A model generated the notes under the pieces. That model was not told where the DNA came from. It did not search any database and saw only the letters and a program-made list of their open reading frames with translations. Positions 17,492 through 63,274 of a DNA stretch of 64,000 nt are shown one piece after another (position 1 is the first letter of the stretch; each line of letters starts with the position of its first letter). Both the position numbers and the translations under genes were made by a program. The stretch is from contig CAVOXA010000001.1 of assembly GCA_963700285.1 (NCBI GenBank), positions 1,632,001 to 1,696,000 of the forward strand, in the 5' to 3' direction. This DNA is from an uncultured Chloroflexia bacterium. Lineage in GTDB: Bacteria; Chloroflexota; Anaerolineae; JAAYZQ01.

Positions 17492-17676
17492 TTTTACTCC
17501 CTCCTTGGATGAAATATGACTTGCCCCGTTGCCAAGTCGCCCATGAATGTACCCAAATGCCGACTGTCATCACAAAGGTTAATGCATTGGCCCTCCTTTC
17601 TCTGTACCCCCTCATGCCCAGACCAAGACCCTATGGCCAGGAACTGGCGGAAAACCGGCAAAGCGTCACTCTTGGA

Positions 17677-21226: not shown

Positions 21227-21349
21227 GTTATCAGGCCCGAGCAAGCAGGATGCGGGATCAACTTCTATTTCCGGCCGAGATAAGGAGGTGGCGCGGCTAC
21301 GATAAACCAGTAGTGGTTCGATGAGCAGTGAGAAAGGAGCGATAGCACC

Positions 21350-42795: not shown

Positions 42796-44144
42796 TCATT
42801 GCTCCCCAATTTCTGCATAGCGCTCCCAAACCCCAGCCGATAGCTCCCTTGCCCTGGCCGCAATCGCTTCCTCATCGAGGCTCAGCAGTTGCCGGTCGCG
42901 CATGAGCCACTTGCCGGCCACCATGGTAGATGTCACCGCATCGGCCTCAAAGCCAAAGAGAATATGCCAGGGTAGATTGCCGGCTGTCAGCTCGGTAAAG
43001 GGGTGATAATCCACCAGGATCAGGTCGGCATAAGCGCCAGGAGACAGCTCGCCGACGGCCGCCTGCGGCCAAAAGACCCGGGCCAGCGCCGCGTTGTTGG
43101 CGACGGCCATCTGCATGATATCGTATCCGTTGGCCCGCCTGGGGTCGCCGTGCCAGACCTTGTGCAGCAGGTAGGCGGTCTTCCACTCGGCCCACATGTT
43201 GTTGCTAAATCCGTCATTGCCCATGGCCACCGGGATCCCGCCGCGCAACATCATCTCTACCGGCGCCACACCAACCGCATTGTTCATGTTGGAGCGTGGC
43301 TGGTGGGTGACCCAGGTGCCTGTGTCGCGCAGGATCTCCATTTCCCAGGCGTCCACGTGCACGCAGTGTACCAGAATGCTCTTGGGGCCCAGGATGCCGG
43401 CATCGCAGAGCCGTTCGACGACCCGCTTCCCGCTGCGGCGCAGGCTGTCCTCTTCATCCGAGATCCCTTCGGCAGCGTGTATGTGAAAGCCCGCGTCCAA
43501 ACCCTGGACTGCCGCCACGCAATCGGCCAGCGTCTCTTTCGATAGGGTCAAGGAAGCGTGCAAGCCAAAAGAGGCCGCGATCAAGGGGTTCTTTCTTGCC
43601 TGAACCGCGCGGAGAAACCGGACGTTCTCCTCGATCCCCGCCTGTGCTTCGTCGCGGCCGTTGCGATCGGTCACTTCATAGCAGAGGCTGGCTCGCAAGC
43701 CAGCTTCATTGACAGCCTCCGCAATCTCATCCAGGCTGCCTGAAAGGGCCGATGGGCTTGCATGGTGGTCAATAGGGTGGTGGTACCATGCTTGATGGCA
43801 TCGACCAGGCAGACGAGCGCCGAGTAGCGCACGTCCTCCTGGGTGAGGGCTCTATCCAGACGCCACCACAGCTTGGCCAGGATCTCTGGAAAGTCACGGG
43901 GCGGATCGCCAGGGATGGCCATGCCCCGGGCAAAGGCACCGTAAAAGTGGGTATGGCCACAGATGTTGCCCGGCATGACGAGCTGGCCGCCTGCATCTAC
44001 CACTTTTTCGTCGGGGTATGCTTCCTTCAGCTTGCCAGCCGTGTCGACATCCGTAATCAGTGCGCCGTCCACCCGGACAGCGCCGTCTTCAATGATCTCG
44101 TTGGTCTCGCCTAGGGTGACTATGCGGCCGTTTGCAATCAGCAT
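42796..44144 (-). CDS. ssnA: Putative aminohydrolase SsnA with a single frameshift at about 43775
   Basis: MPGNICGHTHFYGAFARG, LWWRLD and GTTTL/IDHHASP across the shift; LCYEVTDRNG, FGLHASLTLS, HIHAAEG and PRSNMNNAVG. Confidence 0.88.
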
Positions 44145-44201
44145 GGTTGACCTCCTTAACGAAGCGTGGGGAATGGGATGCTGCAACGGGCTCTTATTCG
44201 C

Positions 44202-45758
44202 CTAATCCCCTGTCTCCTCGTGCACGCCTGCCATCAACAGGCCGAGCCGTTCTGGCGTTGCGCTCTCGCTATCCACCACGTCCATGATCCGTCCTTCAAA
44301 GATCACAGCAATGCGGTCCGAAAGGGCCATGATTTCGTCCAGATCTTCCGAGATAAGAAGGACGGCATTGCCTTGCTCGCGCTGCTCCAGCAGGAGGGAG
44401 TGAACGTATTGGGTGGCGCCAATGTCTACGCCGCGAGTCGGTTGGGCGGCGATGAGCACTCGTGGCTCGCGTGAGAGTTCTCGCGCGAGCACCACTTTCT
44501 GGATGTTGCCGCCGGACAGATTCTTGACTCTCGTATCGCGGGATGGAGTCTTGATCTGAAATCCCTCGATGAGCTTGTCAGCAAAACTGGCAATGACTCG
44601 CAGGTTCTGGAAGCCGTTACGGGCAAAGGGTCGTCGGCCATGATCTCGCAAGATCTCGTTCTCTGCCACCGTGAAATTTTGAATTACGGCATCCTTCATC
44701 CGCTCTTCCGGGATGTAGGCAAGCTTCTCTTCCGTCAGCGCCCCCGGCAATTGGCCTGTGACGTCCTTGCCTTCAAGCACGATCTGTCCCTGCGTAGCAG
44801 GTCGCAGGCCCGTGATGACTTCGGCCAGCTCCCGTTGGCCGTTTCCCGAAACACCTGCGAGCCCCAAGATCTCGCCGGAATAGAGTTCCAGGTCAACCCC
44901 ACGCAGTGCTGGCATCTCGCGGTCGCTTTGGGCGTGAAGGTTCCTAACTTCCAGCCGGATCTCGCCCCGCTGCACATCGGCGCGTTCCGGTTTCATGATT
45001 ACCTCGCGTCCAACCATCATCCGCGCCAGATCTGCCTTGGTACAGCCCGCAGTCTCACAACTGTCAACCCTCTTCCCATCGCGCAGCACGGTTACGCGAT
45101 CGCTAATGTCCAGTACTTCGTGCAGTTTGTGCGAGATAAAGATGACGGCGTGACCGTCCCGGACCATCTGGCGCAAGGTAGTGAAGAACTCGTCCACCTC
45201 TTGAGGCGTAAGGACTGCGGTGGGCTCGTCAAGAATCAGGAGGGCGGCTCCCCGGTAAAGGGCTTTGATGATCTCTACGCGCTGGCGCTGGCCCACGGCA
45301 AGTTGCCAGATGCAGGCGTCAGGATCGACCTGCAGGCCATAAATGTCGCCCAACTCCCGGATGCGCTTTGCCACCTGATCGGGGTCCGTCAACAGCCCCC
45401 GGGAAGACGGCAAGCCCAGGGCCACATTCTCGGCTACCGTCAGGGTATCCACCAGCATGAAGTGCTGATGGATCATGCCAATGCCCTGTTCGATTGCGTC
45501 CGTGGGGGATTCGATGCTCACAGGCTGGCCGTTGAGCCAGATCTCGCCTTCATCGGGTGCATACATCCCGTACAGCACCTTCATCAGGGTGCTCTTGCCA
45601 GCCCCGTTTTCTCCCAACAGAGCGTGGACCTCACCAGTGCGCACGTCAAAATCAACGTGATCGTTGGCCACTACGCCTGGAAATAGTTTGGTGATTCCCT
45701 TCATTTCCAAATGGTCGATTCGAGTACGGCCGGAAGGTAGGATGTTGTTGTTCGTCAT
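44202..45758 (-). CDS. Nucleoside/purine ABC transporter ATP-binding protein
   Basis: GENGAGKS, HQHFML, DEPTAVLTPQE, LSGGNIQK and QPTRGVD. Confidence 0.93.
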   Translation of the reverse strand: MTNNNILPSGRTRIDHLEMKGITKLFPGVVANDHVDFDVRTGEVHALLGENGAGKSTLMKVLYGMYAPDEGEIWLNGQPVSIESPTDAIEQGIGMIHQHFMLVDTLTVAENVALGLPSSRGLLTDPDQVAKRIRELGDIYGLQVDPDACIWQLAVGQRQRVEIIKALYRGAALLILDEPTAVLTPQEVDEFFTTLRQMVRDGHAVIFISHKLHEVLDISDRVTVLRDGKRVDSCETAGCTKADLARMMVGREVIMKPERADVQRGEIRLEVRNLHAQSDREMPALRGVDLELYSGEILGLAGVSGNGQRELAEVITGLRPATQGQIVLEGKDVTGQLPGALTEEKLAYIPEERMKDAVIQNFTVAENEILRDHGRRPFARNGFQNLRVIASFADKLIEGFQIKTPSRDTRVKNLSGGNIQKVVLARELSREPRVLIAAQPTRGVDIGATQYVHSLLLEQREQGNAVLLISEDLDEIMALSDRIAVIFEGRIMDVVDSESATPERLGLLMAGVHEETGD

Positions 45759-45777
45759 CACATGCTCCTGATCTGAG

Positions 45778-45819
45778 ACGCAATGCGCGAAACGCGAGTT
45801 CACGTTTCACGCATTGCGT
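45778..45819 (-). other. 19-bp RNA stem-loop just downstream of the BMP gene
   Basis: Minus-strand arms ACGCAAUGCGUGAAACGUG and CGCGUUUCGCGCAUUGCGU pair fully, with two G-U wobbles. Confidence 0.7.
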
Positions 45820-45828
45820 TTTCCCTAG

Positions 45829-46842
45829 CTATTCACCTATGTCAATGGTGATGGATCCATCAACAATCCCCTTGATGGCTTCTTCCGCTGCTGCTTTCAC
45901 GTCGGCTGGCAGGTCAAAGTCAGGGTTGTATTCCATGACCTGGCCCTTGTTCTCCAGCGTGATGTTGTAGGCCTTGCCGCCGTAGGTACCCTGGCCCATC
46001 AGGTTGATGATGTCATCCAAGACCACGCTCCAGTCGTATATCTGGTTGGCGACCACAATGTCCGGGGCCAGTGAAGACTGGCTGGCTTGTGTGCCAAACC
46101 ACAGCGCTCCATTCTTCTCGGCAGCGCCGATGGCGCCTACTACCATCTGAGCTGTGCCGGTCAGGACATCGGCTCCGGCCTGAAGATGGGTATTGGCCGC
46201 TTCGGCCGCCATAGCCACATCAGAGAATGAGCCGATATAGTTGACATTGACCTGAGCGTCTGGATTGGAGGCTTTGACACCCTGCAGGAACCCATCGATG
46301 TACAGTTTGGCGTCGCCGGTCTCGATGGGGCCGACCACGCCGATCACGTTGCTCTTGGTGAGCATGCCGGCCATGACGCCGTTGACATAGCCGCCTTCGT
46401 CGGAAGCGGCCTCGTAGGCAAAGACGTTCTTGATCCCTTCCTCCGTGAACGTATTCACGGTTGTGCCATGTGCGAAGGCGGTCTCGGGAAAGTCGGGGGC
46501 AATCTCCTGTAGAGAACTACCATACTGGGAGCCGTGGGCAATCACCAGGTCATAGCCCTCGGTTGCATAGTCACGGATGGCCGCTGCAGCGTCGTCAACT
46601 ACGAACATCCCCTCCGAATAGACCAACTCCATCTTTTCTGGGCCGCCCATCTCCTCTTGGATGGCGAGCAGGGAATCGTACATGCTCTGGCTGAAGGCTA
46701 GATCATTGATGGTGCTGGGCATGATAACGGCTACACGGATCACACCATCGTCCCCCCGCTTCCTCCCCCCGCCAGGTCCGCAGGCGGCAACCACCAGTGC
46801 CACTATCACTGCCAAGACTAACATGCTGCCTTTTTTCGACAT
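45829..46842 (-). CDS. BMP-family ABC substrate-binding lipoprotein
   Basis: Lipobox VAAC; DLAFSQS, GYDLVIAHG, IGSFSD and GADV; RBS GAGGAGG. Confidence 0.92.
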   Translation of the reverse strand: MSKKGSMLVLAVIVALVVAACGPGGGRKRGDDGVIRVAVIMPSTINDLAFSQSMYDSLLAIQEEMGGPEKMELVYSEGMFVVDDAAAAIRDYATEGYDLVIAHGSQYGSSLQEIAPDFPETAFAHGTTVNTFTEEGIKNVFAYEAASDEGGYVNGVMAGMLTKSNVIGVVGPIETGDAKLYIDGFLQGVKASNPDAQVNVNYIGSFSDVAMAAEAANTHLQAGADVLTGTAQMVVGAIGAAEKNGALWFGTQASQSSLAPDIVVANQIYDWSVVLDDIINLMGQGTYGGKAYNITLENKGQVMEYNPDFDLPADVKAAAEEAIKGIVDGSITIDIGE

Positions 46843-46995
46843 TTCTTCCTCCTCATTTCTCAAGATTGTTCATCAAAGCCAAGCTCATCACCCTGATCTA
46901 CAGTTGTCCGCGGACATCACCTCCTTGCCAAACGTTGGGGTTGAAGTTGGAGGCTGACTGACTTGTCCAGTCTCAACTTCAACCTTGACCTCAAC

Positions 46996-47928
46996 CTATC
47001 CCTCTCTCTCAAACGGTTTCGTCAGCGCTGAGGGGGCACGCACTCGCTTTGTGGTCAGGACGAGGGCCACAATGGTCAGGACGTAGGGCATCATCACCAG
47101 GAGATCTGAAGGGATTGCGGCGCCCATCACTTGGAGCCAAAGCTGAAAGGCGATCACCACGCTGAAGAGTAGTGCGCCCAAGAGTACACCTACTGGCCTC
47201 CAACCGCCAAAGTAGACCAAGGCCACGGCGATGAATCCCAGACCGCTGGTCATGTTTTGCTGGAATACATTCAGCAGGGCGATCGACAGGGAAGCGCCGG
47301 CAATGCCGGACAAGGTCCCCCCCATCGTGACGGTAAAATAGCGCACGGCGCTGACGCTCACACCCAGCGAGTCAGCCGCTTCGGGATTCTCGCCCACCGC
47401 CCTGATCTTCAGACCGATGTTGGTCTTGTTCAGGACAAAGGTGGCAATGGGTACGAGGAGATAGGCGATGTAGACCAGGATGTTGTGGCTGAAAAAGACT
47501 TCACCCAGGATGGGAATGTCACTCAGTACCGGGATGTGGATCGGCGAGAAGCCACGCACTGTCTCCACGGTGCCCAAGGTCATTTGAAAGAGGAGAGTGC
47601 TCATCCCCAGACCAAAGAGGTAGAAGCCGATGCCGCTGATCCCCTGCTCTGCTTGTAGGTTGATGGTGACAAAGGCCATTGCTAGCCCCATCGCTGTACC
47701 GACAATGATCGCTGCCAACAGTCCCAGCCACGGATTGCCAGTGATGAAGGTGACATAGAAAGCAAAAAAGGCTCCCAAGAGCATCTGCCCCTCGACGCCG
47801 AGGTTGAGCACCCCACTTCGCTGTCCAAAGGTCTCACCGATGGCGGCGTACAGATAGGGCGTTGCGAGTCGAATGCCCGAAGCTAGGATGCCAATGAGAA
47901 CGGTGGCCGTAAGGAACTCGGAATTCAT
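46996..47928 (-). CDS. Nucleoside ABC transporter permease
   Basis: RSGVLNLGVEGQML, RAVGENPEAADSLG and GFIAVALV.FGGW. Confidence 0.92.
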   Translation of the reverse strand: MNSEFLTATVLIGILASGIRLATPYLYAAIGETFGQRSGVLNLGVEGQMLLGAFFAFYVTFITGNPWLGLLAAIIVGTAMGLAMAFVTINLQAEQGISGIGFYLFGLGMSTLLFQMTLGTVETVRGFSPIHIPVLSDIPILGEVFFSHNILVYIAYLLVPIATFVLNKTNIGLKIRAVGENPEAADSLGVSVSAVRYFTVTMGGTLSGIAGASLSIALLNVFQQNMTSGLGFIAVALVYFGGWRPVGVLLGALLFSVVIAFQLWLQVMGAAIPSDLLVMMPYVLTIVALVLTTKRVRAPSALTKPFEREG

Positions 47929-49067
47929 GGCGTCACCCCCGATTCAGGCACCAAAGCCTGTTCTTTTTCCGCCTTGCTGGTGGCCTCAATACGCCGCTTC
48001 CGTTGCCGGCGGCGCCGCCAGAGTTCGCTACTGACGACAAAAATCACGACCAGGCCGTTAAGGGCGAGGATAAACGAGGAAGGCACCTGCATGACGCGCT
48101 GCAGCTTGTTGGCCCCTACGAGCAGCGCCCCAAAGAAAAAGGAAGCCGGGATAGCGCCAAGGGGGTGCAATTGCCCGAACAGAGCAGCCACGATGCCGTT
48201 GAAACCTGCGCTGGCCGTGAACCCCGTGGCCGAGCCATCGGTGATCATGCGGTAGTTCAGGCCGTAGACCTGGATGGCCCCGGCCAGTCCGCAAAAGGCG
48301 CCGCTCAGCAGGAGCGCGATCACGATCTGCCGGCGTACCCGGATCCCTCCATACCGCGACGCATCCGGGTTCTGGCCCACTGCCCGAATGCGATACCCCA
48401 GTACCGTGCGAAACAGAAGAATGTAGACCAGGAAGGCCAGGATCACCGCCAGTAGCGCTCCTAGATGCAGGCGAGTGGGCGCCCACCTGGGCAGACGGAA
48501 GGCTGCCTCCAGAGCGGCGGTCTGGGGGATCTTGGAAGCGAGTTCAGCCTGGGCCGGGTCGATCATTGGGCCACGCAGCAGATAGTTCATGATCTGTACG
48601 GCGATGGCGTTCATCATGATAGTGGTCAGGATCTCGTTAACGCCGAAATATGCCTTCAGTGCGCCTGGGATCGCCCCCCAGAGCCCTCCTCCTACAAAGC
48701 CGGCCAGTATGGCCAGGGGGATGAGCACCCAGCCGGGCCAGTTCGGAAAACTCAGCCCCACCACGGTTGCAAAGATGGCGCCCAGGATCATCTGTCCTTC
48801 GCCGCCAATGTTGATGACATTGGCCCTAAACGCGATACAGATGCCCAGGGCTACCAATAGCAGGGGCACGGCCTTGACTGCTGTCTCCGCGACGGCATTG
48901 CTGCTGCCGAAAGCGCCTTCCACTAGGGCTCCATAGGCCCTGATCGGATTGGCGCCCAGCAGCAGCAACATGACGGCCCCCAGTGCCAGCGCGGCAAATG
49001 TGGCAAAGACAGGCAACAGGGCATCCACGACCTGAGAGAAATCGATCTTTGACAGCCAGGTATTCAT
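47925..49067 (-). CDS. Nucleoside ABC transporter permease
   Basis: NIGGEGQ, VNEILTTIMMN, RAVGQNP and GFNGIVAALFG. Confidence 0.92.
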   Translation of the reverse strand: MNTWLSKIDFSQVVDALLPVFATFAALALGAVMLLLLGANPIRAYGALVEGAFGSSNAVAETAVKAVPLLLVALGICIAFRANVINIGGEGQMILGAIFATVVGLSFPNWPGWVLIPLAILAGFVGGGLWGAIPGALKAYFGVNEILTTIMMNAIAVQIMNYLLRGPMIDPAQAELASKIPQTAALEAAFRLPRWAPTRLHLGALLAVILAFLVYILLFRTVLGYRIRAVGQNPDASRYGGIRVRRQIVIALLLSGAFCGLAGAIQVYGLNYRMITDGSATGFTASAGFNGIVAALFGQLHPLGAIPASFFFGALLVGANKLQRVMQVPSSFILALNGLVVIFVVSSELWRRRRQRKRRIEATSKAEKEQALVPESGVTP

Positions 49068-49182
49068 GTTCAATTGCTCTCCTTGTTTCTGGAAGACTGG
49101 AGAACTCGCCCATTGGTAGATTAGCGAACTGGACACTCAGATCAAGTATGCCGATCCACCAGTGCACCAATTTACCGTTCTC

Positions 49183-52122
49183 CTAGTCTTCTGCTCTTAG
49201 CGCCTGCCACACTCGCTCCGGTGTAAAGGGAACCTGCCGGATCCAGACTCCCGTCGCGTCGTGGATTGCGTCGGCCATGGCTGGGGCCATGCCATCCATG
49301 GCGATCTCGGAGACCGATTTGGCTCCGAAAGGCCCCGTGGGCTCGTCCGTCTGGACAAAGATGACTTCCGTCTGGGGCATCTCGCTGGACAGATAGGTGT
49401 GGTAGGGGCCGAATCGTGCGTTGACCATCCGGCCCTGCTCGTCGTAGACCATCTCTTCACAGTGGGCAAAGCCCAGGGCTTGCTGGAGCCCGCCCTCCAC
49501 CTGCCCGGAGGCGGTGATGGGGTTGATCACCCGGCCGGCGTCCACCACCATCAACACCCGGTCCACGGTGACCTGTCCCGTTTCAGTGTCTACTGCAAGC
49601 TCGACAAACTGGGCGGCGAATGGCGGCGGGCTGTCGTAGCTTACGTGGGAGGCGCTGGCAATGATCTGGTGCTGGTTCTGCTGGTGCAGACTGCTCAGGG
49701 CTACGGCTTCCAGCGTGAGGGCACGGCCGTCGGGTAGGAAGACCTGCCTGTCCCGTAACTCAAAGCCTTCGATTCCTTCCAGCCCCAGCATCGTGGCTGC
49801 GTGTTCTTTGATCTGGCTGGCTACCTTGTGGGCTGCCTTGCGCACCGCCCCACCGCTGATGTAGGTCGTGCTGGAGGCATAGGCTCCCGTGTCAAAGGGT
49901 GTGAAATCGGTGTCCGAGGAATAGACGATCATGTCCTCCAAAGGCACGCCCAACACCTCAGCCGCCATCTGGCCCAGGATGGTGTCCGAGCCCGTACCCA
50001 GATCGGTAGCGCCGATCAACAGGTTGAACGAGCCGTCGTCGTTCATCTTGATCGTGGCCGCCGCCATGTCGAGGCCAGCGACGCCGCTGCCGTGCAGCGC
50101 GATGGCCATGCCGATGCCACGGCGGATGGGATCGGCAACGGATCCTTGCTCCGGGCCTGGGTTCATCTGACCGCGTTTACCATACCAGTCCATCGCCTCC
50201 AGGCCCACCTGGACGCACTGCTCCAGACCGCTGGAGCGGATGACCTGCGCGAAACCTTCGCGCCCCTCGCCCAGGGCCTTGGCCATCAGAAGTTCCTCGC
50301 CTACCTTGATGACATTCTTGCGCTTAAAGTCGACGACGTCCCATCCAAGCTTGGCTGCAATCTCGGACATCAAGGTCTCGAGGCCAAAGTAGCATTGCAT
50401 GGCGCCATAGCCGCGAAAGGCGCCTGGCGTGGGCTTGTTCGTGTATACGACGTCACAGACAAACTTGGAGAAAGGCGCGTTGTATAGGGTCAGGCCCTTC
50501 TGGCCGCCCACCATCTGTACTGTCAGGCCATGGGTGCCGTAGGCGCAGGTATCTCCGATGAGATCAAGCTCGATGGCGACTACCTCCATCTCGTTGGTGA
50601 CGCCGACCTTGTAGCGCATGATATGAGGATGGCGGCTGCGAGAGCTGGTGAATTCTTGTTCTCGAGAGTATTCCATGCGTACCGGCCGGCCGGTGGCGAG
50701 GGTCAGATGGGAGCAGAGATCCTCCAGGATCATCTCCTGTTTATTGCCAAAGCCCCCTCCAATGCGGGGCTTGATCACCCGGATCTGCTTGACCTGTAGG
50801 CCGATCAGGGGAGCGAGCATGCGCCGCACGTGGAAGGGGACCTGGGTGCTGGTCCGAACCACTAGCCGGTCATCCTCATCCCAGTAGGTGATGCAGACGT
50901 GGGGCTCGACGTGGGCCTGCTGCTGCTGTGAGGTCCGGTACTCCCCCTCAAAGACATGGTCGGCCTTCGCCCACTGGACTTCACCGTCTCCGCCCTCCGC
51001 CTCGATATGCAGGACGATGTTATGCTGGGCATCATAGATGCCCTCAGTGTCGGGCTCGTCGTGGATGACTGGCGCGCCCTCCCGCATGGCTGCCTCCGGG
51101 TCCAGTACGTGGGGCAGCACTTCGTACTCGACTTCGATCAGGCGCAGAGCCCGCTGGGCCAGTGCTGGCGTCTCGGCGGCGACGATCGCCACCCGGTCGC
51201 CTACGTGGCGCACTTTGGTGTCCAGGCTCACCTGGTCGAGGGGGGGCGGATTGGGGTAGCTCTGTCCACCCGTGGCGTACTTGATGCGCGGCACATCCTC
51301 GTGGGTTAGGACAGCGTGAACCCCGTCCAGCGCCCGGGCGCGGCTGGCATCAATTCGCTTAATGCGAGCGTGGGCGTGGGGGCTGGTGAGTAGTTCGCCG
51401 TACAGCATGCCCTCCATCCTGATGTCATCGGCAAAGACGGGTTTCCCGGTGATTAGCTTGACTGAATCCACCTTCTGCTCAGGTTTGCCTACCACCTGGA
51501 GTGATTCCATGTCTGGCGGCGAGATCACCAGGGGGGGGCGAGAGATTGCGTCCTTGGCCGACTCATAGTGCTGCCGGACCGTCTCTGCGGGCGACTCATC
51601 GGGACCCAAGGTGGCATGGGCCGGTTTGACCGGGGCCACTTTTTCGCCCCGCAGCATGGCGGCGGCTCTCTGTACCGCTTGCACAATCTTGACATAACCG
51701 GTACAGCGGCACAGCACACCGCTCATCGCCTCTCGGATCTCTGCCTCCGTGGGGTTGGGGTTGCGGTCCAGCAGCGCTTTGGCAGTCATCAGTTGTCCTG
51801 GCGTACAGTAGCCACACTGGCTCCCGCCAGCCTCGATGAATGCCTGCTGGAGGGGGTGTAGCTGGCCCCCAGATGCCAGGCCTTCCACAGTCAGGACCTC
51901 TCGCCCCTCGGCCCTGGCGGCGGGGAGGGTACAACTGTACACAGGCTGTCCGTCCAGCAGAATGGTGCAGGCGCCGCAGTCACCGGTCTTGCAGCCGTTC
52001 TTTACGCTGAAATAGGAGGCATTTCGTAGCGCGTCGAACAAGGTCTCCCCTCGCTGCACGCTCAGGCTTTTCTTCTCGCCATTGATGGTCAGTACAATCA
52101 CGTTCATCCTGGCACTATTCAT
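49183..52122 (-). CDS. xdhD: Molybdopterin oxidoreductase with fused [2Fe-2S] and Mo-binding subunits (XdhD-like)
   Basis: GCKTGDCGAC, QCGYC..CRCTGY, STQVP, IGGGFGNKQ, GAFRGYG, AYASSTT, GQVEGG and FGAKSVSE. Confidence 0.88.
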   Translation of the reverse strand: MNSARMNVIVLTINGEKKSLSVQRGETLFDALRNASYFSVKNGCKTGDCGACTILLDGQPVYSCTLPAARAEGREVLTVEGLASGGQLHPLQQAFIEAGGSQCGYCTPGQLMTAKALLDRNPNPTEAEIREAMSGVLCRCTGYVKIVQAVQRAAAMLRGEKVAPVKPAHATLGPDESPAETVRQHYESAKDAISRPPLVISPPDMESLQVVGKPEQKVDSVKLITGKPVFADDIRMEGMLYGELLTSPHAHARIKRIDASRARALDGVHAVLTHEDVPRIKYATGGQSYPNPPPLDQVSLDTKVRHVGDRVAIVAAETPALAQRALRLIEVEYEVLPHVLDPEAAMREGAPVIHDEPDTEGIYDAQHNIVLHIEAEGGDGEVQWAKADHVFEGEYRTSQQQQAHVEPHVCITYWDEDDRLVVRTSTQVPFHVRRMLAPLIGLQVKQIRVIKPRIGGGFGNKQEMILEDLCSHLTLATGRPVRMEYSREQEFTSSRSRHPHIMRYKVGVTNEMEVVAIELDLIGDTCAYGTHGLTVQMVGGQKGLTLYNAPFSKFVCDVVYTNKPTPGAFRGYGAMQCYFGLETLMSEIAAKLGWDVVDFKRKNVIKVGEELLMAKALGEGREGFAQVIRSSGLEQCVQVGLEAMDWYGKRGQMNPGPEQGSVADPIRRGIGMAIALHGSGVAGLDMAAATIKMNDDGSFNLLIGATDLGTGSDTILGQMAAEVLGVPLEDMIVYSSDTDFTPFDTGAYASSTTYISGGAVRKAAHKVASQIKEHAATMLGLEGIEGFELRDRQVFLPDGRALTLEAVALSSLHQQNQHQIIASASHVSYDSPPPFAAQFVELAVDTETGQVTVDRVLMVVDAGRVINPITASGQVEGGLQQALGFAHCEEMVYDEQGRMVNARFGPYHTYLSSEMPQTEVIFVQTDEPTGPFGAKSVSEIAMDGMAPAMADAIHDATGVWIRQVPFTPERVWQALRAED

Positions 52123-52798
52123 TCCCCGTCTCCTTCTGCAGGCACTGCTCGAGCGCACGCCGGGTCAGCACAACTGCCATCGCCCGGCGGTACGGCTCGC
52201 CGCCTCGAAAGTCGCCTTCGGGTTCGACCTCGCCCTCTATTTCGGCGGCCACCGCCAGAATCTGCTCTTGGGTCAATGGGCCGCCAATCAGTTTCGCTGG
52301 CGCCTGCGCCAACCCCACCGGCTTGGGCCAGACACCCGTGAGGGCGACCCGAGCCTGGGACACGATCCCATCGGTTGTTTCCACCGCGGCAACCGCGGCA
52401 ACAATGGGCTCGTCGGCCGGGGTACGACCCAGATGGGCCTCACCCCAGCTCAAGCCTGTGATTGGGACGTATAGCCTGGTGATGTTGACGGTCTTCTTGG
52501 CCTCCAGCAGTGCCTCGACGGACCGTTGCTCGAGTCCCTCTTCGCCCTGTGTAGCGGCCGTGGCCCCCAGCGCCAAAAGCGCCGCAGACCAGCGGGGCGC
52601 AATCTTGGGCGATAGCAGCGCACGGTGGATCTGCCTTCGATTCCGCTCCTGCCAGACTAACTCGCCGGTGAGCGTTTGGCGCATCAAGGGTGGGCAGTCC
52701 GGGTCCTCCAGTATCGCTTGGAGCGAAAGCTGGGCATCGACGCTCCACCAGCCGTCGATGCTTCCTGGATCTTTCGAAAGAACTTTATCAGCTTTCAT
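52115..52798 (-). CDS. Xanthine-dehydrogenase medium subunit-like protein (YgfM-like), lacking the N-terminal FAD loop
   Basis: RTPADEPIV, ARVALTGV and EGDFRGGEPYRRAMAVVL; overlaps the xdhD start. Confidence 0.7.
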   Translation of the reverse strand: MKADKVLSKDPGSIDGWWSVDAQLSLQAILEDPDCPPLMRQTLTGELVWQERNRRQIHRALLSPKIAPRWSAALLALGATAATQGEEGLEQRSVEALLEAKKTVNITRLYVPITGLSWGEAHLGRTPADEPIVAAVAAVETTDGIVSQARVALTGVWPKPVGLAQAPAKLIGGPLTQEQILAVAAEIEGEVEPEGDFRGGEPYRRAMAVVLTRRALEQCLQKETGNE

Positions 52799-52895
52799 AC
52801 CGATTGTCTCCTTTGGGGCCTACCGGGGTGCAGAGATTGGCGGATTGCAATGTGCTAAAGCCTGGCTGCTGCCCGTCGGCCTCACTCACAGCATT

Positions 52896-54275
52896 CTAGC
52901 GCGTGACAAGATTGCGTGCGAGCTGATTCTGGCGTTCGATCACGGGTTCCAGATCAAGGGTCAGCAGGTGCCCATCGTCGATGACCACCCGGCCATGGAT
53001 GACGGAAAGCTCCACCTGTTGTGGGTGGCAGAAGAACAGAGCGGCCAGCGGGTCGTGCAGTGCTCCGGCAAAATCCACCGTGTCGAGGCGGAACCCAATC
53101 AAGTCAGCGGCCTTGCCTGGGGCAAGCTGGCCAATATCGTCACGGCCTAGCACCCGCGCGCCTCCTGCCGTCGCCATCCAGAATACTTCCTCTGCCGAGA
53201 GGCCGGCTGGGTTGCCAGATACCCGCTGCAGGAGGAGAGCCATCCTGGCCTCCGCCAGCATGTGCGAGGAGTCGTTACTGGCCGAGCCATCCACGCCCAA
53301 TCCCGTGCGAACTCCCGCGTCCAGGTAGGCCCGCACGGGGGCGATGCCTGAAGCCAGGCGCATGTTCGAACTGGGGCAGTGACAGACGCCGGTGCCTGTC
53401 TGGGCAAAGAGGTTCACTTCCTCCTCGTTCAGGTGCACGCAGTGAACGTGCCAAACGTCCTCTCCAACCCAGCCCAGATCCTCAGCATAGCCCGCCGGGC
53501 GGCGGCCGAACTCTTGCAGGCAGAAAGCCTCCTCGTCCTGCGTCTCTGCCAGGTGGGTATGGAGCTGGACGCCATAGGAGCGTGCCAGCGCTGCGGATTC
53601 TCGCATTAGATCGGGAGTGACCGAGAAAGGCGAACAGGGCGCGACGACGATGCGCAGCATGGCGTTGGGTTCCGGATCGTGATAGGTTTCGATAGCGCGC
53701 TGGGTCTCCCTGAGGATGAAATCCTCGTCTTCAACGACGCGGTCGGGGGGTAGACCCCCTTTGCTCTCGCCCAGGCTCATGGAGCCCCGGCATGGCTGGA
53801 AGCGGACGCCAATATCCTGGGCGGCGCGGATCTCGTCATCAATGCGGCAGCCGTTGGGGTAGACATACAGGTGGTCTGAGGCGGTGGTACAGCCCGACAG
53901 CATCAGTTCGGCTAGGCCAACCAGCGCGCTGGTATAGATGGCTTCTGGTGTCATTCCGGCCCAGATGGGGTACAGGGTTGTGAGCCATTGGAACAAGGTG
54001 GCGTCCTGGGCCGCCGGCACCGCCCTGGTCAGGGTCTGGTAGAGGTGGTGATGGCAGTTCACCAACCCGGGCAGAATGATCATTCCCTGGCCATTGATGA
54101 TTGTATCTGCGTTTTCTGGCAACTCGGCAGTGTGTCCAACCTGCTCGATGACGTTGTCGCGAACAAAGAGACCTCCGTCGGGAATGCGCTGGACCTCGAA
54201 GGGGTTTTCCGAGTCCGCAGTGCTGGTATCCGTAGTCACCAGTAGATCGGCGTGTCTTAGGAGCAGTGTTGACAT
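52896..54275 (-). CDS. 8-oxoguanine deaminase-like amidohydrolase
   Basis: PGLVNCHHHLYQTLTR, LSGCTTASDHLY, RGSMSLGESKGGLPPD, APCSPFSV, HTHLAET and GVDGSASND. Confidence 0.9.
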   Translation of the reverse strand: MSTLLLRHADLLVTTDTSTADSENPFEVQRIPDGGLFVRDNVIEQVGHTAELPENADTIINGQGMIILPGLVNCHHHLYQTLTRAVPAAQDATLFQWLTTLYPIWAGMTPEAIYTSALVGLAELMLSGCTTASDHLYVYPNGCRIDDEIRAAQDIGVRFQPCRGSMSLGESKGGLPPDRVVEDEDFILRETQRAIETYHDPEPNAMLRIVVAPCSPFSVTPDLMRESAALARSYGVQLHTHLAETQDEEAFCLQEFGRRPAGYAEDLGWVGEDVWHVHCVHLNEEEVNLFAQTGTGVCHCPSSNMRLASGIAPVRAYLDAGVRTGLGVDGSASNDSSHMLAEARMALLLQRVSGNPAGLSAEEVFWMATAGGARVLGRDDIGQLAPGKAADLIGFRLDTVDFAGALHDPLAALFFCHPQQVELSVIHGRVVIDDGHLLTLDLEPVIERQNQLARNLVTR

Positions 54276-54277
54276 GA

Positions 54278-54523
54278 TTATCCTCCCCCAACCGGAGGTG
54301 AATAGATCACCTCGTCGCCATCGTGCAGTTCTGCCTGCATTCCGACGTAGGCGCGGTTCACAGATGCGCTGATGAAGCGGGTATAGGCGCGCAGCACCGG
54401 GTACTCTTTTGCCAAAATGCCAATCAGGTCGCCCACGGTCGTCCCCGGTGCGATCTCAACCTCCATCCTGTTGCTTACCAGCGTGCCAGGGGGCACGGCC
54501 AGGAATCGTACACGAACGTGCAT
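54278..54523 (-). CDS. MoaD/ThiS-family sulfur carrier
   Basis: 81 aa; VRVRFLA, SVN..YV and LHDGDEV..SPPVGGG C-terminus. Confidence 0.85.
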   Translation of the reverse strand: MHVRVRFLAVPPGTLVSNRMEVEIAPGTTVGDLIGILAKEYPVLRAYTRFISASVNRAYVGMQAELHDGDEVIYSPPVGGG

Positions 54524-55479
54524 CACCGCTTCTCTTCCCGTATGTACGGCAAGCCGAGAGCCGAGGGTGCGCCGGCGCGCTTGCCTCTCGATTCCCGCCA
54601 GGTGATCAGTATCAATACGAGGATCGTGACGATGTAGGGCAGCATGTTGAGGAATGCAGAGGGGATGGTGGTCCCCATGGCCTGCATGCGAAACTGGATG
54701 GCGTTGATGCCGCCAAACAACAGTGCGCCGATCACCGCCCGCAGCGGATCCCAGGTGGCAAAAATAACCAGGGCAATGGCGATCCATCCCCGGCCGCCCG
54801 TGATGTTGTCGGCCCAACCCTGGAGGTACCCCAGGGAAAGGTGTGCCCCGGCCATGCCCATCAGCATGCCGCCGACAACCGTGTACAGGTAGCGGACGCC
54901 GGTCACATCGATGCCCATCGCGTCTGAGGCTGCGGGGTTTTCGCCGACGGCACGCAGGTGCAGCCCGGGCTGCGTCCTGTACAGCCAGAATGTGAGCAGC
55001 GGCACCAGGAAGTAGAGCATGTAGACCATCAGATCCTGGTTGAAAAGGGCTGGTCCGACCACAGGCAGATTGCTCAGTCCCGGTATCGGGACACGCCCAA
55101 AGGTGGCGCCTTCAAGGCCGACCATGGTTGTACCGCCAGGGCCCAGCCGCTGGCCCATAAAGGCGGCCAAGCCTACGCCAAAGATGGTGAGCGCCAAGCC
55201 GCTGACGACCTGCTCAGCGCGCAGGGTGACGGTCAGGAAGGCGTGAATGAGGGACAAAATGGCGCCAATAAAGATAGCTGCTCCCAAACCCAACCAGGCG
55301 CTGCCGCCATGATAAGATACCGCAAAGGCTGTAGCCGCACCCACCAACATGATGCCCTCTACACCCAGGTTGAGTATGCCCGAGCGCTCGGTAAAGATTT
55401 CGCCCAGCGTGGCGTAGAGAAGCGAGGCACCGGCCCGGATAGTAATGGCCAGGATGGAGACGATCAGCGCTTCAGTCAT
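54523..55479 (-). CDS. Nucleoside ABC transporter permease
   Basis: ERSGILNLGVEG, RAVGENPAA and GRGWIAIALVIF. Confidence 0.92.
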   Translation of the reverse strand: MTEALIVSILAITIRAGASLLYATLGEIFTERSGILNLGVEGIMLVGAATAFAVSYHGGSAWLGLGAAIFIGAILSLIHAFLTVTLRAEQVVSGLALTIFGVGLAAFMGQRLGPGGTTMVGLEGATFGRVPIPGLSNLPVVGPALFNQDLMVYMLYFLVPLLTFWLYRTQPGLHLRAVGENPAASDAMGIDVTGVRYLYTVVGGMLMGMAGAHLSLGYLQGWADNITGGRGWIAIALVIFATWDPLRAVIGALLFGGINAIQFRMQAMGTTIPSAFLNMLPYIVTILVLILITWRESRGKRAGAPSALGLPYIREEKR

Positions 55480-56626
55480 GGCTGCCTCCTGCAGGGGCGG
55501 GTTCTGGAGCCTGGGGCGTGTGGCCGTCGGAAGGCCCCCGAACGGTCTCCCTGTCAGGGCGCATGATCCGGACCCGATAGTTCACGAATATGGAGCCGCC
55601 CAGGACAAAGAACAAGATTGCGCCCTGGAGTATGCCGGCCACAGCGGCTGGCAACCCGAGGGCTATCTGTATCTGGTCGCCGCCGACCTGAAGTGCGGCC
55701 ATTAGAAAGGCCACGACCAGCACCCCCCATGGGTTCAGAGCGGCCAGCCAGGCGACGATAATCGCCGTGTAGCCCGTGCCAACCGTGAGGCCATGGTACA
55801 GCCGGTGTGTGATCCCCGAGACCTCGGCCATACCGGCCAGTCCCGCGAGCCCACCTGACAATAGCATGACCAGGATGATGTTCTTGGCGATGCTCATCCC
55901 GGCGTAGCGTGCGGCCTTGGGATTCTCGCCGATCACGCGGATCTCGTAGCCCCAGCGGGTCCGGTTCAGGATGAACCACACCAGCGCCGCGGCCAGGATG
56001 GCAAAGATGAGACCGATGTGTACGCGGCCTGTCAGCCGCGGGAGCCAGGCAGCGTCCGGAAAGATGGCGCTGCCAGGGAAACCGTAGCCTTCGGGATCGC
56101 GCCATGGTCCGTGGTACAGGTACTCGACCATCAGGATGGCGATATAGTTCATCATCAGAGTGGTCAAGATCTCATTGACGCCGATCCACGCTTTGAGCGC
56201 TGCGGGGATGAGCGCCCACAGCGCGCCGGCCAAAATGGCCAGGATCATCATGACCGGGATGAGTGTAAAGCCAGGTAGATAGTCGCTCAGAAAAAGGGCC
56301 ACGAACGCGGCTGCTATGCCGCCCCAGGCCAACTGCCCTTCAGCCCCGATGTTCCAGAAAAGCATGCGGAAAGCAATGGATACGCCGAGACCCGTTAGCA
56401 TGAGGGGTATGGCCTTGACCAGGGTCTCTGTCAGCGCGTAACCGCTGCCCAACGAGCCCTGCACCATCACTCTGTACGCTTCAAGGGGGTTGATGCCAAA
56501 GGCCAGCAGGATGAGTCCGCCAAAGACGAGGGCCAGGACAAAGGAGAGAATGGGCACCAAAACAGAGGCCTTGCGCGAGTGGCTCAGACGTTTTTCAAAG
56601 AGGACGGTGGGTAGGTACTCTTTCAT
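55472..56626 (-). CDS. Nucleoside ABC transporter permease
   Basis: WNIGAEGQ, VNEILTTLMMNY and GYTAIIVAWLA. Confidence 0.92.
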   Translation of the reverse strand: MKEYLPTVLFEKRLSHSRKASVLVPILSFVLALVFGGLILLAFGINPLEAYRVMVQGSLGSGYALTETLVKAIPLMLTGLGVSIAFRMLFWNIGAEGQLAWGGIAAAFVALFLSDYLPGFTLIPVMMILAILAGALWALIPAALKAWIGVNEILTTLMMNYIAILMVEYLYHGPWRDPEGYGFPGSAIFPDAAWLPRLTGRVHIGLIFAILAAALVWFILNRTRWGYEIRVIGENPKAARYAGMSIAKNIILVMLLSGGLAGLAGMAEVSGITHRLYHGLTVGTGYTAIIVAWLAALNPWGVLVVAFLMAALQVGGDQIQIALGLPAAVAGILQGAILFFVLGGSIFVNYRVRIMRPDRETVRGPSDGHTPQAPEPAPAGGSHD

Positions 56627-58248
56627 GGCCTATCCTCCTCCAGGGGAGCTGTGCCAATGTCGGGCTCTTCTACCTGCGATCTACCCTCTCCGGCCATCAG
56701 CAGGCCCAAGCCCTCGCGTGTCGCCTTGTCGGCGTCTACGATGCCGGCGATCTGTCCCTCATACATCACGGCAATCCGGTCCGATAGGGCCATGATCTCG
56801 TCCAATTCCACCGAGATCAACAGCACAGCCACCCCCTCATCGCGTTTCTCTAGGAGCTGGCTGTGGATATACTCGATGGAGCCCACGTCGACTCCTCTGG
56901 TAGGTTGGGCAGCCATAAGGAGTTTGATGGGCCGCGAAAGCTCGCGGGCGACGATGGCCTTTTGTTGATTGCCGCCAGAGAGCAATCGAGCGGGCGTGTC
57001 AGGCCCAGGCGTGGAAATGTTAAAGGTTTCGATGAGCTTCTCTGAAAACTGGTACAGGGCGCCGCCATCCAAGAGCGGTCCCCGGGCCAGCGGCGGTTCA
57101 CGGTAAGCCTTGAGCCCCAGGTTGTCGGAAACGGGCAGGTTGGGCGCCATGCCTACCCCCAGCCGGTCGCCAGGTATGTGGCTGACGCTGGCTCGGATCA
57201 CCTCCAAAGGGGAATAGCCGGTGATGTCCTGCCCTCCGACCCGGACGCTTCCGGCGGTGGCTGGCCGCAGGCCAGCGATGACCTCGACAAGTTCTCGCTG
57301 ACCATTGCCGGCGACCCCGGCGATACCCAACACCTCTCCCTCGCAGACGCGCAGGGAGACGCCCCGCAGCGCGGGAAGGCCCTTGTCGTTCAGTGCCTCG
57401 AGCTTGTCTACCTCGAGCGCAGCCTCTCCAGGCTCACAGGCTTCCTTGTCCAGGAAAAAGAGGACCTCCCGGCCTACCATTAATTCGGCCAGCTTTGCTT
57501 TGCTTGCCCCCTCTATGCCCAGTGTGGCTGTGACCCGTCCCCCGCGCAGCACCATCACCCGGTCGGCAAAGGCCAACACCTCGTCCAGCTTGTGGGTGAT
57601 AAAGATGACCGATTTGCCCTCGTCGACCATCTGGCGCATCGTGGTCGCCATCTCTTCCGCTTCCTGGGGGGTCAGTACAGCGGTTGGTTCATCCAGGATC
57701 AGGACCTCGGCGCCCCGGTACAGCAGCTTGAGGATCTCGACCCGCTGCTGTTCACCGACAGAGAGTTGCCAGATGTAGGCATCGGGGTCGACGCTTAAGC
57801 CATAGCGCTGGGACAGATCGGCGATCTCTTTGCCTACTTGGTCCAGGTGAAGGACCTTGCTCGCACCCTGCAACCCCAGGATGATGTTCTCGGCCACTGT
57901 CAGCGTCTCCACGAGCATAAAGTGCTGGTGGACCATGCCGATTCCGTGCTCAATGGCGTCGCGTGGCGAGCGAAAGTGGACGAGTTGCCCGTCGACAAAG
58001 AGTTCGCCTTCTTCCGCCTGATACAGCCCCGCCAGGACGTTCATCAGTGTACTCTTGCCGGCGCCGTTCTCTCCCAACAGAGCCAGGACCTCGCCGGGAG
58101 CAAGAACCAGGTCAACTTTTTCATTGGCCAGAACGCCCGGGAATCGCTTGGTGATGCCCTTCATCTGCACCGCATACCGCGGCTGCGCAGCAGACGGCGT
58201 CCCCGTGGCAGAGCCTACCTCTGCGACACGGGCATGCGAACTGTCCAT
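56623..58248 (-). CDS. Nucleoside/purine ABC transporter ATP-binding protein
   Basis: GENGAGKS, HQHFML, DEPTAVLTPQE, LSGGNQQK and QPTRGVD. Confidence 0.93.
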   Translation of the reverse strand: MDSSHARVAEVGSATGTPSAAQPRYAVQMKGITKRFPGVLANEKVDLVLAPGEVLALLGENGAGKSTLMNVLAGLYQAEEGELFVDGQLVHFRSPRDAIEHGIGMVHQHFMLVETLTVAENIILGLQGASKVLHLDQVGKEIADLSQRYGLSVDPDAYIWQLSVGEQQRVEILKLLYRGAEVLILDEPTAVLTPQEAEEMATTMRQMVDEGKSVIFITHKLDEVLAFADRVMVLRGGRVTATLGIEGASKAKLAELMVGREVLFFLDKEACEPGEAALEVDKLEALNDKGLPALRGVSLRVCEGEVLGIAGVAGNGQRELVEVIAGLRPATAGSVRVGGQDITGYSPLEVIRASVSHIPGDRLGVGMAPNLPVSDNLGLKAYREPPLARGPLLDGGALYQFSEKLIETFNISTPGPDTPARLLSGGNQQKAIVARELSRPIKLLMAAQPTRGVDVGSIEYIHSQLLEKRDEGVAVLLISVELDEIMALSDRIAVMYEGQIAGIVDADKATREGLGLLMAGEGRSQVEEPDIGTAPLEEDRP

Positions 58249-58446
58249 CGCTGAACCTCCTTTGGGGGCAGTTACCTACATATCGGAAGATGATTGCTGC
58301 CGACCTCCGCCAAGCGAAGGGGCCTCTCATTCACTCTGCGTTGAGGATGAGCCGGGACAAGGGATGGGCAAACCAACAGGAGCCGCTCTAGCGCATTACG
58401 AGCAAGAGAGTAGGGCGCCTGTCGACGACCGGCGCTAGCTGAGAGT

Positions 58447-58488
58447 CAATGCCTCCCCCGCCGGAATCGTCAGTCAGGGGAGGCATTG
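58447..58488 (-). other. Stem-loop just downstream of the BMP gene
   Basis: CAATGCCTCCCC...GGGGAGGCATTG, a perfect 12-bp inverted repeat. Confidence 0.7.
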
Positions 58489-58499
58489 GTTGTGTTAAT

Positions 58500-59633
58500 C
58501 TACTGTGACGGGATGGTACCCGCCACACCCTCGACGAACCAGTCCATGCCGAGCATAGCGCCGTCTTCCATGCACTCACCTTCAGCCACTTTCTCAGTTC
58601 CATCCTGGCCGTTGATGGGCCCGCAAAAGACGTCCCAGTCGCCGCTCATGATCTTTTCCTTGGCCGCTTCTGCGGTAGCCTTCACATCGTCCGGGACCTT
58701 GGGGCTGTAGGGCGCCAGCTCGACAACGCCGTCAGCCAATCCGCCCCAGAACTCGTGGGTTTCCCAGGAGCCATCCAGTACATCCTCGACGGTGGCCGTA
58801 TAGTATGGGCCCCAATTCCAGATTGGGCTGGTGAGCACTGACTCGCCGACAAACTGGCCCATATCCGAGTCATAGCCAATGCTGAGCAGTCCGCGCTCCT
58901 TGGCTGCCTTCTGGGGCTCAGTGGTGTCCTGGTGTTGGGCGATGATGTCAGCCCCTTCGTCCAGCAGGGCCTCGGCGGCCTCGCGTTCTTTCACCGGGTC
59001 GTACCAGGTGTTGCTCCACACCACGCGCACTTCAGCGTCGGGGTTCACCTCACGTACACCCAAGGTAAAGGCGTTGATGCCGCGGATGACCTCGGGAATT
59101 GGGAAGGCTGCCACGTAGCCGATCAGGTCTGTCTCGGTCATGGATCCGGCCACCAGGCCAGAGAGATAGCGGGGCTGGTAGATCCGGCCAAAGTAGGTGG
59201 CCATATTGTCTGCCGTCTTGAAACCCGAGCAGTGCTCGAACGTGACGTCGGGATTCTCCCCGGCGACGGTCAGCATGGGATCCATGTAGCCAAAGCTCGT
59301 CGCAAAGACGACGTTGGCGCCCTGCTGGACGACGTCACGAATGGCCTTCTCTGCCTCCGGGCCCTCGGGCACATCGGGAACGGTGACGACTTCTACCTTG
59401 TCACCCAACTTTTCCTCCAGCATCTGGCGGCCCCGATCGTGCTCGAATGTCCATCCCAGGTCGCCGGGCTGGCCGATATAGATGTAGGCGACCTTGACCT
59501 TGTCCATTGGCGCGTCAGCCGCAGGTGCGTCAGCCTCAGGCGCAGCTTCCTCCTCGGTAGCCCCACAGGCGCCCAGCACCAAGGCCAGGGTGATAAGGGC
59601 AGCCAACAACAGATACATTCGCTTGGACATCAT
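58500..59633 (-). CDS. BMP-family (purine-binding) ABC substrate-binding lipoprotein
   Basis: Lipobox LGAC; GDLGWTFEHDRGR, ATSFGYMD, PIPEVIRGINAF and TWYDP.KE; start at 59633 by RBS spacing. Confidence 0.93.
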   Translation of the reverse strand: MMSKRMYLLLAALITLALVLGACGATEEEAAPEADAPAADAPMDKVKVAYIYIGQPGDLGWTFEHDRGRQMLEEKLGDKVEVVTVPDVPEGPEAEKAIRDVVQQGANVVFATSFGYMDPMLTVAGENPDVTFEHCSGFKTADNMATYFGRIYQPRYLSGLVAGSMTETDLIGYVAAFPIPEVIRGINAFTLGVREVNPDAEVRVVWSNTWYDPVKEREAAEALLDEGADIIAQHQDTTEPQKAAKERGLLSIGYDSDMGQFVGESVLTSPIWNWGPYYTATVEDVLDGSWETHEFWGGLADGVVELAPYSPKVPDDVKATAEAAKEKIMSGDWDVFCGPINGQDGTEKVAEGECMEDGAMLGMDWFVEGVAGTIPSQ

Positions 59634-59801
59634 TGCCATTCCTCCTCATGTTTTGATTGATTCCACTTCTGTGGCTAGTATGACGGGCCTCTCCTGGTTT
59701 TCCAGTATCACCTCCTTGGGTTGGTGCTTTGTAGAGATAGACTGCACTTGCCGGTATTTTGCAGTGGAACCTTTGCCGCCCCTCTTTACCACAGGCTGCG
59801 C

Positions 59802-63146: not shown

Positions 63147-63175
63147 ATTATACCGTGAACCAGTCACAATGTCCA
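63147..63175 (-). promoter_or_regulatory. Sigma70 promoter of the ygfK operon
   Basis: TGGACA-17 nt-TATAAT; RBS GAGGAGGTG downstream. Confidence 0.7.
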
Positions 63176-63262: not shown

Positions 63263-63274
63263 TTCTTCCGCATT

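Follow-up and report, generated by a model that had tools for sequence, protein, structure and literature searches.

The stretch of DNA considered here (the window) is 64,000 nucleotides (nt) long and comes from an uncultured Chloroflexia bacterium of sediment (GenBank assembly GCA_963700285.1, contig CAVOXA010000001.1, forward-strand positions 1,632,001 to 1,696,000). It contains two genes for BMP/PnrA-like substrate-binding lipoproteins of ABC transporters, and both raise the same question. Each gene has a ribosome-binding site (RBS) of its own, and each is preceded, 74 nt before its ATG, by a second and much stronger Shine-Dalgarno (SD) sequence, from which no gene appears to start. What is the function of an SD sequence without a start codon? 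An earlier note, made from the letters of the window alone, had pointed out the two sites and proposed that they help to cut out stable messages for the binding proteins. Here it is found that such orphan elements stand before most of the binding-protein genes examined in the source genome, and we hypothesise that they dock the small ribosomal subunit as a barrier to decay of the mRNA.

The earlier description of the two loci holds in nearly all respects: the SD cores, the separate RBSs and the stem-loops directly behind both genes were all recovered (Table 1). The two sites had been called the full complement of the 16S rRNA tail; they do match the organism's own 16S 3' end, over 11 nt, which is not the whole tail. 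A single 16S 3' end was found in the genome, and its tail is canonical. The calculated duplex of site 1 with the tail is -19.1 kcal/mol, compared to -11.7 for the first BMP gene's own RBS, while the values for site 2 and the second gene are -18.5 and -11.5. The sequence AAGGAGGTG is present in three copies in the window against 0.53 expected, a number reached in 2 of 100 shuffles. As claimed, neither site has a properly spaced ATG, GTG or TTG: at site 1 an ATG lies just 2 nt past GGAGG, which is too near, and at site 2 there is only a CTG. The hairpins start 10–12 nt past the stop codons, with folding energies of -34.3 kcal/mol (z -6.55) for the first gene and -31.4 kcal/mol (z -3.80) for the second, equalled in both cases by 0 of 200 shuffles, and neither is terminator-like.

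Both sites look internal to operons, again in agreement with the note, because site 1 lies 71 nt past the stop codon of the last permease gene, and the promoter-like site nearest to site 2 is some 3.4 kb away, with no promoter-like match on the minus strand in between. A further hairpin, between the permease gene and site 1, is likely to be the 3' end of the segment upstream. On the basis of Pfam matches, the two BMP genes appear to belong to one long same-strand cluster resembling those for purine catabolism.

The arrangement recurs throughout the source genome (7.05 Mb, 89% complete, listed as 6.5% contaminated), whose closest BMP relatives come from records labelled Anaerolineae, Thermoflexia or Chloroflexia. 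Genes were taken from a purpose-written caller (6720 in total, some of them split by assembly frameshifts), and their proteins were classed by simple lipobox, signal and membrane rules. For genes preceded by 60 nt or more of intergenic DNA, we counted exact matches to the tail of 8 nt or more, 25–250 nt upstream, with no ATG, GTG or TTG at spacing 4–12. Such matches precede 21 of the 106 genes for lipoproteins, 5 of the 177 for secreted proteins and 41 of the 4059 for cytoplasmic or membrane proteins, giving an odds ratio of 24 for the lipoproteins against the last group (p 3e-19). On the opposite strand, used as a control, there were none before the 106 lipoprotein genes.

A count by energy focuses on the binding proteins themselves. 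The criterion was a tail duplex of -15 kcal/mol or better, 40–200 nt upstream, with no start codon at spacing 5–11. Binding proteins were drawn from five Pfam families (68 loci, after merging fragments and removing LacI-like and secondary matches by eye), and 53 remained once 9 without a signal start and 6 with evidently wrong starts had been set aside. The element is present before 35 of the 53 ABC binding-protein genes and before 47 of 2202 cytoplasmic or membrane genes, and thus the enrichment that the earlier note's proposal implied is seen genome-wide. A further 2 of the 53 have a strong SD followed by a start codon. The element is also carried by genes for secreted proteins, by an ECF S-type gene and by some enzyme genes.

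A total of 82 elements from the source genome and its relatives, picked irrespective of start codons, were used to define the anatomy. Their consensus is GAAAGGAGGTGAT, with no conservation beyond positions -4 to +8, and the limits of the motif agree with those of the 16S tail on both sides. The distance from GGAGG to the start codon ranges from 62 to 178 nt (median 91.5; 57 in one later case), with a peak at 60–140 nt. Given this range, the value of 74 nt shared by the two BMP genes is due to chance, and a fixed spacing was rejected. The orphan site pairs with the tail more strongly than does the gene's own RBS in 81 of the 82, which is partly an effect of selection, and its mean unpaired probability is 0.38 (0.44 for the true RBS). 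Substitutions were tallied by searching 122 leaders with two mismatches allowed, which gave 81 best matches. In these, 44 of the changes at A positions were to G and 18 to C or T, while the four core G positions changed only 5 times in all. Such an excess of A-to-G, with near-invariant G, is what pairing with the tail would give if G-U wobble were allowed. The form RRGGGGGTG is found in 5 of the 53 binding-protein leaders, its C variant in 1 and its T variant in 0.

The location of the elements is not uniform. Of 41 in the source genome, 22 have a gene on the same strand no more than 150 nt upstream, for 15 such a gene is further away, and 4 are behind a divergent gene. A -10-like hexamer is present within 140 nt upstream in 28 of the 82 (a raw count, without a chance expectation), and some elements stand 12–70 nt behind a TATAAT-like box, that is, in the leader of a primary transcript. 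This split and the hexamers suggest use of the element inside operons as well as close to promoters. Upstream of the elements, neither sequence profile nor base composition pointed to a conserved unstructured or A/U-rich cleavage zone.

Start codons are depleted at the elements. An ATG, GTG or TTG at spacing 5–9 is found in 4 of the 82, compared to about 17.6 expected from the same leaders; over spacing 3–11, 14 of the 82 have one. Near-cognate starts (ATC, ATA, ATT and CTG) were considered and rejected, there being no enrichment over spacing 4–10, 5–9 or 5–8 (at 5–9, 19 ATH observed and 16.2 expected, 6 CTG observed and 9.7 expected), with a spike of ATA, ATC or ATT at spacing 6 in 9 of the 82. 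The CTG at site 2 opens a 19-codon frame, which we judge to be incidental, because the same-genus ortholog has CCG in its place. Among orthologs, the interval from site to RBS also shows indels (-2, +5) that would break a frame. The depleted starts and the lack of any conserved frame suggest that the element directs no translation initiation. A folded leader RNA or riboswitch was likewise rejected, since the two BMP leaders fold like their shuffles (z -0.80 and 0.82); covariance models from Rfam, at their gathering scores, gave no match in the window. An anti-SD decoy switch was rejected because CCTCC or CTCCT lies near the site in just 6 of the 82. With only the SD conserved, changes mostly from A to G and starts depleted, the element thus appears to be neither a leader peptide nor a folded RNA.

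The hairpins behind the genes are also a general feature. A hairpin of -30 kcal/mol or better follows 19 of 27 element-bearing genes (those with an open frame of 800 nt or more), 3 of 10 binding-protein genes lacking the element and 18 of 500 random genes. In none of 22 hairpins behind element-bearing genes is the stem followed by a tract of five or more U, and they are thus not canonical intrinsic terminators. Rho is present in the genome; a second rho-like gene (C14:606846-607919) scores below the family cut-off.

Conservation points to the core rather than to its surroundings. In 11 ortholog pairs with a genome of the same genus, the core is 97% identical and the flanks 73–80%. Site 2 is retained in the ortholog there, and one pair exchanges the central A and G (GGAGGTG for GGGGGTG). 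For wider counts, the tail of the source genome and the energy criterion were applied to all genomes; kin among these are not independent. In the same-genus genome, 15 of 20 family-5 genes carry the element (24 loci, 4 without a start). Among relatives in the family and class it is present at 14 of 22 BMP genes, these remaining from 30 loci after 8 were excluded (one the source's own, four not located, two without a start, one ambiguous), and across the class at 9 of 27 family-5 genes, with 3 more having a start codon. Other Chloroflexota classes gave 10 of 21, of which 8 are from one genome.

Among 80 close BMP relatives (2 of the loci unusable), the element is found at 14 of 21 labelled Anaerolineae and at none of those from Caldilineaceae (0/13), spirochaetes (0/17), Desulfobacterota (0/9), Paenibacillaceae (0/12), Thermotogaceae (0/2) or unclassified sources (0/4). 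Many of those without it have, by eye, a promoter-like box near the start. In Bacillota 9 of 35 genes were positive but only 2 of 11 further genes in the five positive genomes, and its occurrence there is sporadic. The sampled Thermotogota (0/31) and Desulfobacterota (0/28) have none. Three loci scored as orphan (L332, L336 and L339) are false positives lying inside upstream coding sequence, and the control loci in other genomes (0/5 and 0/13) are too few for use. The element thus recurs within the source class, which is likely Anaerolineae, and in part of the other Chloroflexota, with scattered occurrences in Bacillota.

The note had asked whether the gene for RNase J, rnj, is present. It is: the genome encodes an RNase J (TIGR00649 above cut-off, catalytic motifs intact) and also an RNase Y. 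There is no match to RNase E/G, which at 89% completeness does not prove its absence. A second RNase J-like gene lies in pieces on a separate contig (G000:C15:22356-23979, G000 being the source genome). Of 46 genomes of the class, 42 gave an RNase J match, and in one of the misses the gene is split over two contigs. As a predictor of the element, RNase J presence was tried and rejected, there being no clean pattern across genomes. Genomes without an RNase J match encode a divergent protein of about 570 residues with a metallo-beta-lactamase fold and HAHLDH and SGH motifs (L320 in G023; L319 in G029), which from its sequence is a possible stand-in nuclease.

The RNA data consist of two thin metatranscriptome runs in the form of contigs (depth 2–7), from which gene levels and RNA ends are not readable. 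Within positions 44001-64000 of the window, RNA contigs fall on BMP genes and other genes alike. One run has contigs, at least 97% alike, on each of the three binding-protein genes in a 19.5-kb stretch that played no part in finding the run. In run X1 on G000:C14:912500-932000, the genes for permeases and enzymes that lie between those for binding proteins are nearly uncovered (bins 10417-16275 and 2605-7161); these being contigs, this is not counted as evidence.

On the basis of these observations, we hypothesise, with a probability of roughly 0.6, that strong start-less SDs some 60–180 nt ahead of the gene and a hairpin behind it shield the mRNAs of binding proteins. They would combine a 30S roadblock of the kind known as a stabilising SD (STAB-SD) with a 3' hairpin like that of malE. 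Beyond the anatomy, the steps are modelled on work in Bacillus subtilis and B. thuringiensis. At operon-internal sites an endonuclease, probably RNase Y, would cut upstream of the site, while at promoter-near sites the 5' triphosphate would be removed. RNase J would then trim the RNA up to a 30S ribosomal subunit docked on the start-less SD, which would bar further 5'-to-3' decay, and the U-less hairpin would bar decay from the 3' end. The minimum distance of about 60 nt would leave space for a second ribosome at the true RBS. The product would be a long-lived message for one gene, with the binding protein made in excess over permease and ATPase. The earlier suggestion that monocistronic mRNAs are cut out of operons fits 22 of the 41 sites by their position; the others are not operon-internal, and some are promoter-near.

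Several observations speak against this interpretation. The element is missing before 16 of the 53 binding-protein genes. Two genomes (G023, 96% complete, and G024, 87%) have clear elements and no RNase J match, while in three others from Chloroflexota (G064, G097 and G111) RNase J is present but the sampled genes show few elements or none. One contig from the RNA library passes through an element and 315 nt beyond, which implies a longer RNA, or DNA, at that place. Changes from T to C (6) and from G to A (7) also occur, and the A-to-G excess may therefore be partly a transition bias. Finally, at convergent gene ends of the source genome only 22 of 117 hairpins have five or more U, so that hairpins there are mostly U-less. 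For this reason, and because Rho is present, the 3' hairpin may be a decay barrier, a partial terminator, or both.

The main rival is that the upstream site enhances translation, as a loading or standby depot from which 30S subunits pass to the true RBS, with little effect on decay. We consider this unlikely. In its favour, the orphan site binds the tail better than the RBS does (in part through selection), RNase J is not required, which suits the two genomes that lack a match, and the target proteins are expected to be abundant. A duplex near -20 kcal/mol should, however, be expected to retain the subunit and not hand it over, and the true RBSs are already strong and no more sequestered than the orphan sites. 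In addition, standby sites are generally unstructured stretches and are not known to be extended SDs, which counts against this explanation.

Alternatively, unusual start codons behind the elements could open leader peptides or start-stop frames whose translation is coupled to that of the binding-protein gene. The CTG frame at site 2 ends in the RBS, an element before an ECF gene encodes Met-His-stop, and the minority of elements with a start at spacing 3–11 or ATH at spacing 6 could be read in the same way; but the depletion of canonical starts, the background level of near-cognates over spacing 5–9, the loss of the CTG in the ortholog and the indels between site and RBS make it very improbable. 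Hardly better placed is a site for a CsrA-like protein, which would recognise GGA, or for an anti-SD small RNA, regulating the binding-protein genes as a group. A motif common to one class of genes does resemble a regulon, but GGGGGTG variants recur without any GGA and interchange with GGAGGTG between orthologs, the bounds of the motif fit the 16S tail on both sides, and there is no hairpin context, although no search was aimed at a small RNA resembling the tail. A role in transcription, in which a docked 30S or a polymerase pause stops Rho from loading on the leader so that transcription proceeds, draws on the presence of Rho and the scarcity of U-tract terminators. It too is highly unlikely, as the leaders, with a median length of about 90 nt, are short and are not rich in C, and there is no other sign of Rho involvement. 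Least probable of all is that the sites are relics or chance, as RBSs of lost or missed small genes. A number of the genome's strong intergenic SDs do precede small genes missed by the caller, but enrichment specific to strand and class, the peak in distance, conservation above that of the flanks, start-codon depletion and recurrence across families of the class largely refute this.

Table 1 Features of the window that bear on the orphan SD elements (positions in the window).
Feature	Position	Strand	Basis or remark
Orphan extended SD, site 1, CAAGGAGGTGAT	46916..46926	-	11-nt match to 16S tail
Orphan extended SD, site 2, CAAGGAGGTGAT	59707..59717	-	11-nt match to 16S tail
Own RBS GAGGAGG, first BMP gene	46848..46854	-	
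Own RBS GAGGAGG, second BMP gene	59641..59647	-	
BMP/PnrA-like ABC substrate-binding lipoprotein, 337 residues	45829..46842	-	Pfam PF02608, start call, lipobox; ATG at 46842
BMP/PnrA-like ABC substrate-binding lipoprotein, 377 residues	58500..59633	-	PF02608, start call, lipobox; ATG at 59633
3' hairpin without U tract, first BMP gene	45778..45819	-	Folding; followed directly by RBS of ABC ATPase gene
3' hairpin without U tract, second BMP gene	58447..58488	-	Folding
Hairpin between upstream permease gene and site 1	46940..46983	-	About -21.6 kcal/mol, no U tract
ABC ATPase gene, downstream of first BMP gene	44202..45758	-	Pfam, gene call
Two permease genes (BPD_transp_2), upstream of site 1	46996..49067	-	Pfam, gene call
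ABC ATPase and two permease genes, downstream of second BMP gene	54523..58248	-	Pfam, gene call
Oxidoreductase gene, 1102 residues	59802..63110	-	
Promoter-like site, ahead of oxidoreductase gene	63147..63175	-	11/12 consensus match only
19-codon CTG-started frame	59646..59705	-	CTG at spacing 5 from site 2; stop overlaps BMP RBS
Related upstream SD, inferred ECF S-component gene (16709-17491)	17591..17601	-	100 nt before gene
Related start-less SD, secreted PKD/GEVED-domain protein gene (21350-24628)	21282..21290	+	61 nt before gene

Two further elements in the window had been listed in the note as related. The one before the PKD/GEVED protein gene is indeed start-less, but that before the ECF gene, putatively for an S component to judge from the genes for an ATPase and CbiQ beside it, is followed at spacing 4 by an ATG that opens Met-His-stop, and it is not strictly orphan. 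A few elements (window 17579-17601, minus strand, and L050) have a start codon and then a stop within 1–4 codons (Met-His-stop, Met-Lys-stop), and are perhaps a start-stop form of the same device. Tandem orphan SDs about 75–95 nt apart precede single binding-protein genes at G000:C10:275515 and 275591, at G000:C7 near 137080-137180 and at G000:C3 near 16618-16702; in the C7 ortholog pair, one tandem copy is deleted. Binding proteins with two or three tandem domains (open frames of 660–1140 residues) are common in the class (L003, L005-L009, L021; G000:C14:106067).

Elsewhere on the minus strand of the window, a protein of 1077 residues (39470-42703) fuses serine hydroxymethyltransferase and glycine-cleavage T domains. 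Genes for an amidohydrolase and short-chain dehydrogenases (42796-44144 and 24716-27768) are apparently split across frames, the assembly being rich in frameshifts. An 81-residue protein ending in Gly-Gly-Gly (54278-54523), in a molybdenum-hydroxylase cluster, is presumably similar to the MoaD/ThiS sulfur carriers.

The sites mimic perfect RBSs of nonexistent genes, and annotation of such genomes should take note of this. In uncultured Chloroflexota they also offer a simple tag, readable from sequence, by which abundant secreted proteins may be recognised. A broader reading, which we hold more tentatively than the shielding of individual messages, is that in Anaerolineae and some other lineages a parked 30S subunit would act as a genome-wide programmable 5' cap, a tag of 12–13 nt and a 3' hairpin together carving out long-lived one-gene messages for dozens of nutrient-binding proteins. 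If so, free small subunits would be a routine part of the mRNA-decay code, and in slow-growing cells the supply of binding proteins would track the pool of free 30S.

The primary work on the STAB-SD of cry3A is reportedly that of Agaisse and Lereclus in 1996 and of Mathy et al. in 2007. The mechanism proposed here is already known; what is without an earlier description in the open-access literature that we could find is a two-ended cassette across a whole gene class in Chloroflexota. Nor did that search turn up any account of orphan SDs in Chloroflexota or ahead of binding-protein genes, and the earlier note's impression that the system is undescribed in the phylum stands to that extent.

Its two halves have separate precedents, described here as far as the available text of each source goes. 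For the 3' end, malE and other binding subunits of E. coli have protective hairpins and their operons decay differentially (PMC5927463); the stable U-less hairpin is common to both, and the E. coli binding subunit is stabilised at any position in the operon. E. coli, however, relies on RNase E and on 5' RNA structures for internal genes, and the available text does not mention Shine-Dalgarno sequences. In Ruminiclostridium cellulolyticum, strong stem-loops similarly stand behind the binding-protein genes of ABC importers, as internal terminators that set their excess over the permeases (PMC9045158). The stem-loops there act as partial terminators, their U tracts are reduced, and no 5' element is described (neither Shine-Dalgarno nor ribosome is mentioned in the text available), whereas none of the 22 hairpins here has five or more U. 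The present elements would supply the 5' half that has been missing from an account of how binding proteins encoded in mid-operon are over-produced by bacteria that have RNase J and RNase Y.

For the 5' end, the hbs mRNA of B. subtilis is cut upstream by RNase Y and trimmed by RNase J1 up to a ribosome on a very strong SD (PMC5737220), but that SD is the translating RBS of the gene itself and not a separate start-less site. A preprint on decay in B. subtilis (10.64898/2026.10.14.759229) similarly places ends at translating RBSs, not at orphan sites. The closest parallel is the STAB-SD of B. thuringiensis cry3A, where a 30S subunit on a start-less SD blocks RNase J (PMC4113751, PMC12970973); a review calls such elements possibly widespread (PMC4113751), and they have been proposed for Listeria inlA, inlC and uhpT (PMC5449094). 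In both systems, the leader contains a sequence that resembles an SD, matches the 3' end of the 16S rRNA and lies roughly 100 nt ahead of the start codon without initiation; the hosts have RNase J and RNase Y, and the protein encoded is one required in large amounts. They differ in that the STAB-SD is known from single genes, while the elements described here, known from sequence alone, stand before dozens of genes per genome that share one functional class, roughly half of them in operons, with a 3' hairpin and in Chloroflexota. The consensus, the rule for distance and the dozens of natural variants make the generality of ribosome-docking stabilisers directly testable, and elements of a kind that has so far been a one-gene curiosity are here found before two thirds of the binding-protein genes examined.

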